Of a stretch of DNA of 64,000 nucleotides, positions 28,337 through 63,455 are shown in pieces (position 1 is the stretch's first letter; each line of letters opens with the position of its first letter). This DNA comes from Escherichia phage vB_EcoM_G17, in sequence record MK327931.1; one strand, written 5' to 3'. A model generated the notes under the pieces. That model was not told the DNA's origin, made no database searches, and saw only the letters and a list, made by a program, of their open reading frames with translations. The position numbers were made by a program, and so were the translations under genes.

Positions 28337-28558
28337 TCATTCCTCATCACTTTCAGTTAGCATAATGCTATGTACAGTTTCCACATAGCGGTGTGTTTTG
28401 GGTGTGTTATACTTTGTAATTTCATCAAACAATTTAAACAGTGCATCTACTTCACTAAGAGCACGAATGAATACATCCATCTTGGTGACTACTCTGGAAA
28501 ACCCGCGTATGTTATTAAATTCAGAGACGTGTTCATACACAACATAGTATCTATTCAT
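28337..28558 (-). CDS. hypothetical protein (73 aa)
   Basis: ORF in array. Confidence 0.5.
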   Translation of the reverse strand: MNRYYVVYEHVSEFNNIRGFSRVVTKMDVFIRALSEVDALFKLFDEITKYNTPKTHRYVETVHSIMLTESDEE

Positions 28559-29073
28559 ATATTAAAAAGTTCCATGAATTCATTGAATAAAGAAGTTCTA
28601 ATGCACATAACAAATTCAAAGTCAACATCGATGGTGTCAAGTAGTTTGAACAACTTTGGTACTAATGGATCATTCACCTCAAAGTTATGAATCAAACTTT
28701 GTTGAAACACATTTTCTTCAGTACTATAATCAATAACAAAATATTCAGCAATACCAGGTGGTGTGTAAACATCATATAAAATATGGCGGTGATGATTTGT
28801 TTTAGAACTAGGGGAATATATAAGTTCTATTTCATAAGATTTATCAGCACTGCGTGCGTAACAAACAATATCAGTACTTGTTATTTCTGAACCATCACTT
28901 CTCTCTGAAAAACAAACATCAGCATAGCGTTTTCCAGAGAGATTCAAAAGATCATGAGTTGTTTTACCATAACAGAAATCAGTTTCAATGCGTATCACAT
29001 CTTGATATTCAATTGGTCTTGTATCGCGGCGTTCACGATTAAACACTAATTTCAACAACTCATTAATATCCAT
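28555..29073 (-). CDS. EE-FQ-S family small protein (outlying member)
   Basis: STEENVFQQSLIHNF matches the family signature seen at 43-63 kb. Confidence 0.55.
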   Translation of the reverse strand: MDINELLKLVFNRERRDTRPIEYQDVIRIETDFCYGKTTHDLLNLSGKRYADVCFSERSDGSEITSTDIVCYARSADKSYEIELIYSPSSKTNHHRHILYDVYTPPGIAEYFVIDYSTEENVFQQSLIHNFEVNDPLVPKLFKLLDTIDVDFEFVMCIRTSLFNEFMELFNI

Positions 29074-29273
29074 TACTTAGTCTCAATAACCTTTAGATTT
29101 ACAAAGTCACCTTTAACCTTCATACATTTGTATTCAGTGCGAGTTTCATCACCAGCATCACGAGGCCAATGAGTTGCAGAGTAACACTGATCAGGTGTTT
29201 TATATACACCTTCACCAACGGTGCGAGTGATTTCACCATTAGTTAGTACTACTGCAAGATATAAAGTAAACAT
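29073..29273 (-). CDS. hypothetical protein (66 aa)
   Basis: ORF in array. Confidence 0.45.
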   Translation of the reverse strand: MFTLYLAVVLTNGEITRTVGEGVYKTPDQCYSATHWPRDAGDETRTEYKCMKVKGDFVNLKVIETK

Positions 29274-29424
29274 ATTAGTCCTTAGAATAATTTATTAATA
29301 ATAATAGCACCCAAACCAAGTACTGCAATAATTGCAGATACCCACATTACCGCGTTCACTGCACCTGTGAGTTCTTTATCAAACTCTCGGCACTTCTTGC
29401 GGTAATCTTCCCACTCTTTGTTAT

Positions 29425-29640
29425 TCACACTACCACTCCTAATAGGTCGGTAGCTTTCTTGAGAACTACATCAATCGTTTCCAGTACTGCACCTTTGTGT
29501 TCAATTGATACAATATTATTATAAGTATCAAGGTCCAAGTACTCCATATATTCTGTTTTGAATACACGAACTTCAGTACTGGTGATTTTAATATCACAAC
29601 CTTTATCCCAAATAACCTGCATCATTTCATTGGTAGTCAT
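29425..29640 (-). CDS. hypothetical protein (71 aa)
   Basis: ORF in array. Confidence 0.5.
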   Translation of the reverse strand: MTTNEMMQVIWDKGCDIKITSTEVRVFKTEYMEYLDLDTYNNIVSIEHKGAVLETIDVVLKKATDLLGVVV

Positions 29641-29915
29641 TATTCAACCTTATCATAAACAAGTTTGTGTGTGCTTAGTACTTTGTTGTGATGTCCAGGG
29701 CATTCATATACATACAATCGCTCCTGACGTTTTTCCCAACCACCACAGATACGACCTGATTGTGTACATATTTCATACTCGTTAATAAAAGACTTGCCTG
29801 TGAATGTACAATCCTGACGAACTAAGTCTTTTGCACTAAACCTGCCGTCATCATTACATGCTGTAAGAAACATTGTACAGAATACAAAGACAACTGTCAA
29901 TAGTTTTTTAATCAT
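29640..29915 (-). CDS. putative lipoprotein
   Basis: MIKKLLTVVFVFCTMFLTAC lipobox-like. Confidence 0.6.
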   Translation of the reverse strand: MIKKLLTVVFVFCTMFLTACNDDGRFSAKDLVRQDCTFTGKSFINEYEICTQSGRICGGWEKRQERLYVYECPGHHNKVLSTHKLVYDKVE

Positions 29916-30280
29916 TGAATATCACCCCAACGGAAACCTTTCATATAATTCAAATTCACCTCAACTAGTTCATGTGTTTTTGTACACCAAATGGAGAGAG
30001 TTTTTGTAACATCACCAGGTTCAGATTCATAATTCACACAATAACCTTCAATGCGTAGAGTTTTGTTAGTCCAATGTTCCCACTCAATCCAAATTTCATT
30101 TGGATAATAAACCATATCTTCTTTGAACGTATGGAATTGATCCATTGGTAAATGACCTTTAACTTCAATTACTTCAGCACTTCGAGCCAGTTTTTCAAGC
30201 TTGTACTTTATTTCAGCAAGATATTCTTCATCATTCAGACGAGTGAATAAATCTGTTGCACGGGTTGTATCAAGGCTCAT
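29912..30280 (-). CDS. hypothetical protein (122 aa)
   Basis: ORF in array. Confidence 0.55.
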   Translation of the reverse strand: MSLDTTRATDLFTRLNDEEYLAEIKYKLEKLARSAEVIEVKGHLPMDQFHTFKEDMVYYPNEIWIEWEHWTNKTLRIEGYCVNYESEPGDVTKTLSIWCTKTHELVEVNLNYMKGFRWGDIQ

Positions 30281-30528
30281 TGTTGTACTCCATTAATCAC
30301 TGAAGTGTTGATTCGTGTTTTTCCGCTAGTGTATCCAGTACTGGTGTTTGCATTAGGACAATAAACTGTATACAACGTTGCACCAGCACCTTCCTGTTGC
30401 ATACGATAAATCTTACATCCTGCTTCTTTTAATTCAGTAGGGAGTTCAAAATCACTTGTGCGTTCTTTGGTTGAAGCATCACATGCAGTGAGTAAAAATG
30501 CGACGAGTACTGCTACAATGTATTTCAT
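30277..30528 (-). CDS. putative lipoprotein
   Basis: MKYIVAVLVAFLLTAC lipobox-like. Confidence 0.6.
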   Translation of the reverse strand: MKYIVAVLVAFLLTACDASTKERTSDFELPTELKEAGCKIYRMQQEGAGATLYTVYCPNANTSTGYTSGKTRINTSVINGVQQ

Positions 30529-61818: not shown

Positions 61819-62186
61819 CCACCATTAATTCTTATATTTGTATAGTTTAATGCTTTTTTAATAATACCAATTTCTGTAATTCCTATTACATTTTTCTCAA
61901 TCAATGACAATTGGAATAGTTCCTCTTCGGAAATATCAATACTGTGGATTCTTGTACAATAATCGTTGAAGTCATATACATATCGTATTGTATAGTCGTT
62001 TATAGAAACTGATACAATTGCAATCCCATCATGGATGTAAGTTAGTTCATTTGAGTATCTATTAAAAATTAACCTATCTGGTGAACCTATTGGTAGTTGA
62101 AATGTATTTCTAGTATCTTGAACAATAACAAAATCATCATCTATATTTCTACTCAGAACACCCAAAATATCATATATAGTAGTCAT
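61809..62186 (-). CDS. EE-FQ-S family small protein
   Basis: ISEEELFQLSLIEKNVIGITEI. Confidence 0.6.
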   Translation of the reverse strand: MTTIYDILGVLSRNIDDDFVIVQDTRNTFQLPIGSPDRLIFNRYSNELTYIHDGIAIVSVSINDYTIRYVYDFNDYCTRIHSIDISEEELFQLSLIEKNVIGITEIGIIKKALNYTNIRINGGCR

Positions 62187-62187
62187 G

Positions 62188-62592
62188 TTATTCTTTACCT
62201 TCAGCAGTTCTGATAATTTTCATAACTTCTCTGGATAGTGCGTATATTTTTTTATAGTACTCAAATGTAACTGAACCAAAATCATTAATAGTACTAGCCA
62301 TGAAGAACGATTCTTCTGTATATAGTTCATTTGACAAAGCAACCAGTTCTTGGTGAAATTTTGCGTCCTTCCAATAACGAAATTCAAAAACAAATTGTCC
62401 GTCATGACCGACTCTACAACATTCAGAACGATCACTGTCTACACAGCTAAACACAATATCCCTTTCAGAGTCGTACCAGATATTTCCAATATTTGTTTCA
62501 ATAACAGCATAATCAATTTTTTTAGAATTTGGAATTAAACCTTTTTTCACCAGCACTAAACTGGTATTATCAATATCTAGTAAACTTACCAT
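62188..62592 (-). CDS. EE-FQ-S family small protein
   Basis: YTEESFFMASTINDFGSVTFE. Confidence 0.6.
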   Translation of the reverse strand: MVSLLDIDNTSLVLVKKGLIPNSKKIDYAVIETNIGNIWYDSERDIVFSCVDSDRSECCRVGHDGQFVFEFRYWKDAKFHQELVALSNELYTEESFFMASTINDFGSVTFEYYKKIYALSREVMKIIRTAEGKE

Positions 62593-62593
62593 A

Positions 62594-63004
62594 TCAATTC
62601 CCCATTACTAAAGTGTTTTTAATCTCCAACAATTCACTATACATATTCTTCAATTGTAATATATCTTCAAAAGTAATACCACCAAGATCATCAACTAATG
62701 AACGTTGGAATAAAGATTCACTTGTTTGTAATGTATCTAAATCGGTGATTTTTAATAAAGAACTTGGATTAAGTGTTTCGACTAGTAGTATGTTTTTGTA
62801 TGGTACATATGTGATCTTGATGTTCTTTTTATAATTAATCTTATAAAATCGCATAATTGACGATTCATCACTTAGTTGGATAATTGGGTCGTCTTGATCA
62901 TTAGACCACCATACAGTACTAGTCATATGATTGACGTGGTGGTTCAATTCTGATATGTCCAAATCTAAAAAATATTTTAGTTCATTGTGTAAATCTAAAC
63001 TCAT
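62594..63004 (-). CDS. EE-FQ-S family small protein
   Basis: TSESLFQRSLVDDLGGITFEDI. Confidence 0.6.
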   Translation of the reverse strand: MSLDLHNELKYFLDLDISELNHHVNHMTSTVWWSNDQDDPIIQLSDESSIMRFYKINYKKNIKITYVPYKNILLVETLNPSSLLKITDLDTLQTSESLFQRSLVDDLGGITFEDILQLKNMYSELLEIKNTLVMGN

Positions 63005-63059
63005 AAATTTATCCTCAATGCAGCATCATCATGTATTGTAGGATAAACCCACAATAATG

Positions 63060-63455
63060 TCAAGATGTGAAATAATTATACCAGTAATATAGTTCTTTTA
63101 ATTCTTCAGTACTGAACAATACTTCTTCTATTGTAGATTGTTGAAAGTGATATTCATCATTTAGATACATAGAAATATTACTATATACTTTCCTATTGTA
63201 TTGACATAAAAAAGAAGTTTTTTGATTAATGTATTCCGTAAATGTTAATTTATCTAACTCAATATCGAATGATAATTTAATAATATGACTATTATCATTT
63301 ACATACATTAGTTTCTTTGAAAAATGATCAATTGTAATATATTCTTTATGAGAGAACTGAAATATATTATTAAATTTATTACCATTTGTGCTTCTAAATT
63401 TTTCAAGGTAATAAGAAAGTGGTTTAATTATTGAAGTTCCAATATTGTTCTTCAT
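63060..63455 (-). CDS. EE-FQ-S family small protein
   Basis: NDEYHFQQSTIEEVLFSTEEL. Confidence 0.6.
   Translation of the reverse strand: MKNNIGTSIIKPLSYYLEKFRSTNGNKFNNIFQFSHKEYITIDHFSKKLMYVNDNSHIIKLSFDIELDKLTFTEYINQKTSFLCQYNRKVYSNISMYLNDEYHFQQSTIEEVLFSTEELKELYYWYNYFTS

Follow-up and report, generated by a model that had tools for sequence, protein, structure and literature searches.

The Bcl-2-like proteins of poxviruses and the multigene families of African swine fever virus (ASFV) comprise dozens of diverged paralogues of one fold, which lie in accessory or terminal genome regions, are non-structural and are thought to be expressed early. Among jumbo phages, the closest described case is a zinc ribbon of Bacillus phage G, a lineage-specific expansion of ~35 copies whose role is unknown and which Iyer et al. 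(2021) called 'unprecedented' (PMC7824862). The RaK2 paper states that ~10% of the RaK2 proteins are paralogues without defining the families, and the CBB paper lists 22 paralogous open reading frames (ORFs) (PMC5259590). Here we describe a family of small proteins encoded in a 64,000-nt stretch of Escherichia phage vB_EcoM_G17 (MK327931.1; the whole stretch is called the window, and coordinates are window coordinates unless the record is named). At positions 57000-63500, the window matches Escherichia phage Sharanji (OR545507.1, 350,079 bp, genus Asteriusvirus) with 100% identity, and other E. coli jumbo phages, including 121Q, PBECO4 and phAPEC6, with 96-99.8% identity; subtracting 47,777 from a Sharanji record coordinate gives the window coordinate. 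In the Sharanji genome, 99.3% of which underlies all genome-wide counts given here, a converged iterative hidden Markov model (HMM) identified ~63 members, all on the minus strand and 103-229 amino acids (aa) long (median 151), which total 29.25 kb, or 8.4% of the genome and ~11% of the genes. As with the phage G zinc ribbon, a jumbo phage here carries a great many paralogues of one small domain; this family, however, has about twice as many copies, does not consist of zinc ribbons and is without a known relative in fold. Like the poxvirus and ASFV families, it consists of many diverged, clustered paralogues of one (here predicted) fold, most pairs being 20-35% identical. The viruses, hosts and folds are different, however; host targets are known for the poxvirus and ASFV proteins and none for the phage family, and the phage repertoire is ancient and stable whereas theirs is accordion-like.

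The family was previously unrecognised as a single superfamily. It is not described in the papers on Sharanji, RaK2, CBB and phAPEC6, in jumbo-phage reviews or in a comparative-genomics survey, and the Sharanji record annotates all ORFs of the originally reported set as 'hypothetical protein'. In PHROGs, 10 members fall into 8 different groups of unknown function with weak cross-hits (1e-3 to 1e-6). The groups phrog_17453, 24941, 30841, 28118, 38573, 21500, 22160 and 34619 and their siblings hold orthologues of individual window members (E 1e-56 to 1e-122), but they are unannotated, and the unity, size and fold of the superfamily are unrecorded there. The initial annotation could not place the shared signature in any family, and this holds for the curated resources: Pfam gave no consistent family among 147 members (8 single-member matches, each to a different family), NCBIfam gave no match for the family, and the best match of a profile search against PDB sequences had E=0.6.

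The starting observation was a set of 20 ORFs with a common C-terminal signature. All 20 are present on the minus strand (117-180 aa) at the positions reported, the three peptides quoted as examples are exact, and the six genes at 60923-63455 indeed form an uninterrupted run, with gaps or overlaps of -7, -10, +1, +1 and +55 bp. The motif is significant, since the pattern [EDS]E..F[QM].[SNC] has 17 matches in the minus-strand ORFs of the window and 0 in the plus-strand ORFs, against a mean of 0.098 and a maximum of 2 in 1000 shuffles. For the profile, we took five seed ORFs linked by significant BLASTP similarity (E as low as 1e-11, with at least 100 aa aligned), independently of the motif originally reported. 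After seven rounds of iteration, the HMM had recruited 17 of the 20 ORFs at E<1e-3, where the best reversed or shuffled decoy reached E=0.026, and it also found relatives beyond the window; in hhalign controls, none of 8 unrelated neighbours scored better than E=0.09. The other three ORFs, starting at 47820, 50810 and 52318, are borderline, and one member (22948-23544) had been overlooked. The window holds 18 members, and a further one lies just past its right end (record 112001-112429). Because the ratio of nonsynonymous to synonymous substitution rates (dN/dS) is 0.08-0.48 in 16 orthologue pairs, the ORFs are, on sequence grounds, genuine genes of one lineage-specific protein superfamily. 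The family is therefore real, and the initial annotation understated it.

Outside the window, 39 of the Sharanji members form a nearly continuous block at record positions 330.6-350 kb and then 0.1-9.3 kb, and a few lie among metabolism and replication genes at 261-279 kb. A second HMM, built from window members and metagenomic relatives only, gave 46 genome matches at E<1e-3 and included most of the terminal block; since this profile had no training sequences from the block, the block is not an artefact of profile drift. The signature (S/T)-(E/D)-E-x-x-F-Q-x-S-(T/L)-(V/I) is present in nearly all aligned Sharanji members. The Klebsiella phages RaK2, K64-1 and Muenster carry full-length orthologues at 27% identity (tblastn), and the syntenic region of RaK2 contains at least 11 motif-bearing members, which likewise flank a DNA methyltransferase gene and tRNA genes. 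A real member was needed as the query, as tblastn of the phage collection with the HMM consensus peptide gave no match. It took an exhaustive HMMER search, covering 1.84 billion representative proteins, to reveal the wider family, whereas a word-indexed homologue search with family alignments returned close orthologues only. The exhaustive search gave 138 clusters at E≤1e-3, all of 62-249 aa, and F-Q or F-M forms the core in 128 of 129 new representatives, nearly always as part of the full motif, with the refined consensus (S/T)-E-E-E-(Y/F)-F-Q-x-S-(T/L)-(V/I)-x-D-x-x-x-(L/I)-T-(F/Y)-E-(D/E). Named carriers include the Salmonella jumbo phages SE_PL and Munch, and most clusters consist of metagenome sequences. 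Seven members lie in a 20 kb stretch of an uncultured IMG/VR contig of 358 kb, and a search of IMG/VR with the motif alignment confirmed only 3 loci. From CBB, GAP32 and Yersinia phages, only structure-level neighbours came up. We also considered whether the 22.5 kb terminal repeat of Pectobacterium phage CBB, with its 51 short ORFs, is built from the family, and rejected this: the last 48 kb of CBB, including the repeat, gave no HMM match better than E=0.1.

An AlphaFold2 model of gp206 (45134-45499; Sharanji gene numbers are used throughout), computed from a 147-sequence alignment, has a mean predicted local distance difference test (pLDDT) score of 89.7 and a predicted template modelling (pTM) score of 0.80. 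In the model, whose numbering is the protein numbering minus 1, a helix (3-14) is followed by strands 25-31, 43-49, 54-60, 63-67 and 75-78 and by helices 86-95 and 103-113. The model of a second member (62594-63004; 48-sequence alignment) shows the same order of elements, so that the two modelled structures agree in this respect, but its confidence is low (pLDDT 58) and it was not used for fold searches. Each protein is thus predicted to be a single small domain with an N-terminal helix, a five-stranded antiparallel sheet and a C-terminal helix pair. The notion that N-termini without relation to one another share a C-terminal motif was not supported, since several pairs align over at least 100 aa at 25-32% identity and the whole protein is one predicted domain. 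Fold searches with the gp206 model found no solved relative. The order of elements is the same as in the Mam33/p32 (gC1qBP)/trypanosome p22 fold, but the model has five strands, fewer than the seven of p32, and shows no significant structural superposition on a solved member of that fold. Immunity proteins of polymorphic toxins (SUKH/SMI1_KNR4 and others) gave no profile or fold match.

In the gp206 model, the signature forms the first C-terminal helix, with the S/T directly before the helix and the acidic residues at its first turns, and a second element, T-x-E-(D/E), opens the last helix. Such arrangements are known from helix N-capping boxes and hydrophobic staples. We therefore propose that the signature, (S/T)-E-E-x-(Y/F/L)-F-Q-x-S-(T/L)-(V/I)-x-D...(L/I)-T-x-E-(D/E), would represent two N-capping boxes plus hydrophobic residues that pack on the sheet, and that its role is to define the fold and not to form an active site. 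This structural reading agrees with the start of the helix after the S/T, with the tolerated replacement of Q by M (~7% of members), with the conservation of F in 91% and with the stronger constraint on the C-terminal part described below. The literal likeness of E-E-E-Y-F-Q-x-S (e.g. KTEEEYFQMS in 48280-48633), with Q at P1 and F at P2, to the cleavage sites of the TEV and HRV-3C proteases (ENLYFQ/S and LEVLFQ/GP, cut at the slash) would suit a further reading, which takes the motif for a short linear motif or protease cleavage site, or else for a chance or compositional artefact in non-coding ORFs. We give this reading a negligible probability. In the gp206 model, the motif is helical (residues 86-95) and belongs to a folded domain, in blocks whose mean pLDDT is 88-92. 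The position that follows Q varies and is frequently taken by a large residue (Q, Y, L, R, M, E, K and others), with S at P2'. Chance is excluded by the HMM decoys and the shuffles, and the ORFs are under purifying selection. With a helical motif and a residue after Q that is not small, we rejected the TEV/3C-site reading, and the likeness is almost certainly coincidental.

Throughout the 138 clusters, the motif is far better conserved than the rest of the protein. This conservation would also suit an adaptor, in which the invariant hairpin (E-E...F-Q...S) docks one partner shared by all members, such as the phage ClpA/ClpP/ClpS-like machinery, host RNA polymerase or the phage sigma factor, while the variable sheet recruits substrates; substrate-receptor families of giant viruses (F-box, BTB) provide a model. 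A constant part joined to a variable part has the shape expected of an adaptor, and the phage has its own ClpP, ClpA and Clp adaptor, plus a sigma-70-family factor encoded inside the window. However, the motif looks structural, given its capping boxes, its tolerance of M for Q and its confidently modelled helix. Moreover, ClpP occurs throughout the Rak2-like phages (GAP32 and the Erwinia, Serratia and Yersinia relatives), whereas the family was not seen in the 48 kb of the Mimasvirus CBB that was scanned. Since the distribution of ClpP is wider than the established distribution of the family, their co-occurrence gives the adaptor no support, and we regard a common-partner adaptor as unlikely, though still deserving of attention.

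Paralogues lie close to one another. The best paralogue of a member is a median of 8.7 kb away versus 46.8 kb by chance, with none of 2000 permutations below 12.2 kb, and it is the adjacent member 8 times versus 2 expected, which points to local tandem duplication. The youngest pair is 56% identical. Sixteen members have one-to-one positional orthologues in phage vB_Ec-M-J, with a median dN/dS of 0.23, whereas 52 neighbouring genes have a lower median of 0.085 (Mann-Whitney p=0.003; p=0.04 against small neighbours only). In the same orthologue comparisons, the sheet-containing N-terminal half evolves faster than the motif-containing C-terminal half (pooled dN/dS 0.33 vs 0.19, Wilcoxon p=0.002). 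As far as sequence comparison can tell, the family is an old, retained and moderately fast-evolving repertoire under purifying selection and not a rapid accordion. The earlier suggestion of a diversifying interaction module is accordingly borne out in part: the members evolve faster than their neighbours and the sheet half faster than the motif half, but all dN/dS values are below 1, a diverged relative keeps stable one-to-one positional orthologues and most paralogue pairs are ancient.

The stable one-to-one orthology and purifying selection, a conservation that predates the split of the Escherichia and Klebsiella phages, and the few members among the metabolism and replication genes at record 261-279 kb are what would be expected if the proteins served the phage itself, in replication, in DNA condensation or as assembly chaperones that are absent from the virion, rather than acting on host targets. 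On the other hand, ~63 diverged copies are hard to square with a housekeeping role, the setting is one of small early ORFs with host-type promoters, the family evolves faster than its neighbouring genes, and the part of CBB examined (the last 48 kb) has no members detectable by sequence. We consider a phage-internal role improbable.

The promoter content of the region points to early expression. Between window positions 7500 and 64000, the coding strand has 11 perfect sigma-70 consensus promoters versus 0.1 expected from shuffles and 0 on the other strand, and 31 near-perfect ones (at least 11/12 matches) versus 2.7 expected and 1 on the other strand. Examples of the perfect TTGACA-N16-18-TATAAT type lie at 56619-56591, 54759-54730, 54212-54184 and 46327-46300 (minus strand). 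Genome-wide, there are 100 strong sigma-70 sites on the minus strand versus 11 on the plus strand, and a strong promoter on the same strand precedes three-quarters of the family genes by no more than 3 kb. The family is thus probably transcribed early by host RNA polymerase. In CBB, an equivalent promoter-rich region of short ORFs, including a phage sigma factor homologue, was proposed to hold early host-takeover genes (PMC5259590). In the present window, a sigma-70-family factor is encoded at 33689-34654 (minus strand), in the middle of the small-ORF region. As for the virion, the 62 virion proteins of phAPEC6 all fall outside gp078c-gp149c and gp347-gp549, where the family clusters lie (PMC7247149), and the virion proteins of RaK2 map to clusters other than those of the family (PMC3622015). 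The expansion does lie in an accessory region, as originally suggested, this being non-structural and rich in early-type promoters.

The members are mostly acidic, with a median isoelectric point (pI) of 4.84, a pI below 5.5 in 75% of them and a median net charge of -9 that goes down to -26, and with exceptions up to pI 9.3. Ocr, Arn and Ugi are acidic DNA-mimic proteins, and the members could likewise be decoys that mimic DNA or another nucleic acid against restriction enzymes or other DNA-binding host enzymes. The charge, the early-type context and the acidic residues conserved in the motif agree with such mimicry. In contrast to mimics of the Ocr/Arn/Ugi type, however, acidity is not universal in the family, and no known mimic is among the structural matches listed, so we judge this explanation quite improbable. 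Both DNA mimicry and a phage-internal role appear less likely to us than binding of host factors.

We favour, at about even chances, the reading that the members are early, non-structural, cytoplasmic binders of host factors or defence effectors, each paralogue with its own specificity. In such a scheme, old local tandem duplications would have expanded the family and each copy would have been kept; host RNA polymerase would transcribe the genes early, and the products would stay out of the virion. The conserved helical hairpin would hold the scaffold, while the faster-evolving half with the N-terminal helix and the sheet would give each paralogue its own binding specificity toward host proteins, and the outcome would be host takeover, the neutralising of defence or abortive-infection effectors, or both. 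A bolder version, which we put forward only tentatively and think rather doubtful, is that this is the largest single-fold paralogue expansion yet in a tailed phage, on a fold without a solved relative, and that it acts as a modular library whose copies each have a host factor or defence effector of their own to neutralise or redirect, be it directly or by passing the target on to the phage Clp protease.

Several points weigh against the binding of host factors. No target, interaction or phenotype is on record for any member, and PHROGs and the fold searches revealed no similarity to known anti-defence or takeover proteins. Every dN/dS value is below 1 and the repertoire is stable between relatives, where a fast arms race would predict otherwise. 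The invariance of the motif could reflect a shared ligand instead of a structural role. Strong sigma-70 promoters are sparse in the terminal block (~2 per 10 kb), which makes the early timing less secure there. The virion proteomes were mapped by gene order and not by sequence, a comparison of members with phAPEC6 virion proteins by molecular weight having proved ambiguous, and about one-quarter of the members are neutral or basic.

Within the window, all members are on the minus strand, and neighbouring members often overlap or abut (-53 to +1 bp) in an operon-like manner. The overlooked member, gp152 (22948-23544, 198 aa), has the motif LNDEEYFQESIV and scores E=4e-8 and 1e-7 with the profiles c2.hmm and a4.hmm, respectively; its orthologues (P0044-47 and P0059-61) retain the motif. 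The next one, gp168 (28555-29073, 172 aa; STEENVFQQSLI), has HMM E values of 2e-8 and 6e-9 and belongs to phrog_28118, a group of unknown function. A group of five follows. Here, gp201 (43174-43629, 151 aa; DTEEEHFMESTV) has M in place of Q and a dN/dS of 0.37 versus vB_Ec-M-J, the comparison to which the following dN/dS values also refer. The seed gp202 (43577-43993, 138 aa; IDSEMFFQLSTV) overlaps the next gene by 53 bp and matches gp206 by BLASTP with E=1.5e-5 over 105 aa. The HMM-recruited gp203 (43995-44423, annotated start 44414, 142 aa; LTEEMYLQLNFV) has a dN/dS of 0.24, and a putative sigma-70-like promoter with 10/12 matches and an extended -10 TG lies upstream of it at 44463-44492 (minus strand). 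The modelled gp206 (121 aa; YTEESLFQYSMI) has a dN/dS of 0.18, and gp207 (45492-45917, annotated start 45896, 141 aa; DTEEKFFQYCLL) matches it by BLASTP with E=1e-11 over 107 aa.

The stretch from 47820 to 52710 contains the three borderline ORFs. A probable divergent member, gp216 (47820-48203, 127 aa; ADEEDEFQKRTV), was not recruited by the HMM (E=0.07) but has an hhalign E value of 1.3e-4 and a BLAST link to the family representative P0115. A possible divergent member, gp232 (52318-52710, 130 aa; DSEEDEFQKNTT), matches gp216 by BLASTP with E=0.007 and on its own has an hhalign E value of 6e-3; a joint alignment of gp216 and gp232 reaches an hhalign E value of 6e-5 against the family profile, and both for gp216 alone and for the pair the match is in register over the motif helix and the last helix. 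The third, gp229 (50810-51214, 134 aa), is doubtful: SVEEEFQYNLLY lies near aa 108, the a4.hmm E value is 0.009, and the hhalign match (E=1e-3) covers only 14 columns. At aa 69 there is a second motif-like element, MTDEAYRFRCTLY; this ORF may have arisen by rearrangement of a copy or be one in decay. Two HMM-supported members lie in the same stretch, namely gp217 (48280-48633, 117 aa; KTEEEYFQMSTV; dN/dS 0.46), with a candidate 11/12 sigma-70-like promoter at 48665-48692 (minus strand) in the gap just upstream, and gp230 (51211-51714, annotated start 51699, 167 aa; RTEEERFMLSTI), which is basic (pI 9.3) and has a C-terminal extension.

Further along, the HMM recruited gp246 (57090-57533, 147 aa; NLEEMYFQQLTI; dN/dS 0.37), gp248 (57913-58368, 151 aa; FNDEYVFQQSTV), which served as the positive control for hhalign (E=6e-9), and gp249 (58365-58907, annotated start 58880, 180 aa; LSEEEFFQRSTI), which has a long C-terminal helical extension and whose orthologues (P0018-P0039) retain the motif. 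The six-gene run begins with gp254 (60923-61363, 146 aa) and continues with gp255 (61357-61818, 153 aa; LTEEGFFQQSLI), gp256 (61809-62186, 125 aa; ISEEELFQLSLI), gp257 (62188-62592, 134 aa; YTEESFFMASTI), gp258 (62594-63004, 136 aa; QTSESLFQRSLV) and gp259 (63060-63455, 131 aa; LNDEYHFQQSTI), the last of the run inside the window. In this run, gp257 was a seed and the other five were recruited by the HMM; gp258 has the full-length RaK2 orthologue at 27% identity, and a putative 11/12 sigma-70-like promoter, TTGACA-17-TACAAT, lies in the gap upstream of it at 63035-63063 (minus strand).

Other genes lie among the members. A cytosine-5 DNA methyltransferase gene, annotated as HaeIII-like (59405-60265, minus strand), sits between family clusters, and a methyltransferase gene occupies the equivalent position in RaK2 and vB_Ec-M-J. 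The tRNA genes for Thr, Asn, Met, Ser (two) and Arg are dispersed among the members at 45934-49384 (minus strand). RaK2 and vB_Ec-M-J share this tRNA arrangement, and the neighbourhood of family, tRNA and methyltransferase genes is therefore conserved. Five mutually similar ORFs of ~54-60 aa, at 48704, 49026, 49679, 50204 and 50459 (minus strand), alternate with tRNA genes (Arg, Ser, Gly) between family members. The protein encoded at 24725-25165 (minus strand) had no Pfam match at E≤1e-3, whereas its apparent positional counterpart in a metagenomic relative (146 aa in both, same gene order) has a precomputed match to PF26820 (Phage_T4_Y00F); a Pfam scan of 10 non-family neighbours gave no match.

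Two other paralogue groups were noted in Sharanji. First, 12 tandem plus-strand paralogues of 245-443 aa, one of which is annotated as an RCC1-repeat protein, occupy record positions 40.8-54.9 kb, and window positions 1-7077 (plus strand) cover roughly the last 6 of them. Their apparent counterparts in phAPEC6, gp003-gp010 ('DNA condensation proteins'), were found in virions by mass spectrometry. Second, all-against-all BLAST revealed a separate family of ~28 minus-strand ORFs of ~70 aa at record ~7.8-15.7 kb, outside the window, which are mostly packed head to tail and adjoin the terminal block of the main family; the density of strong sigma-70 promoters in this zone is 5-11 per 10 kb.

Most genes of the 121Q/PBECO4/RaK2 jumbo phages are of unknown function (83% are annotated as such in phAPEC6), and with ~11% of the genes encoding one domain, a large share of these unknowns is reduced to a single question. 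The family accounts for much of the undefined ~10% of paralogues in RaK2 and offers a concrete case of genome gigantism through ancient duplication and retention. Its profile can serve as a marker for uncultured relatives in metagenomes, and with E. coli K-12 as the host, toxicity screens, pull-downs and plating on defence libraries are feasible. Should the members prove to bind different host targets, they would offer plenty of new inhibitors against bacterial proteins or immune systems, as well as a new fold to study. If the family is in fact a modular library, bacterial viruses would have their own equivalent of the poxvirus and ASFV multigene families, and the 350 kb genomes of Rak2-like phages would be easier to explain.

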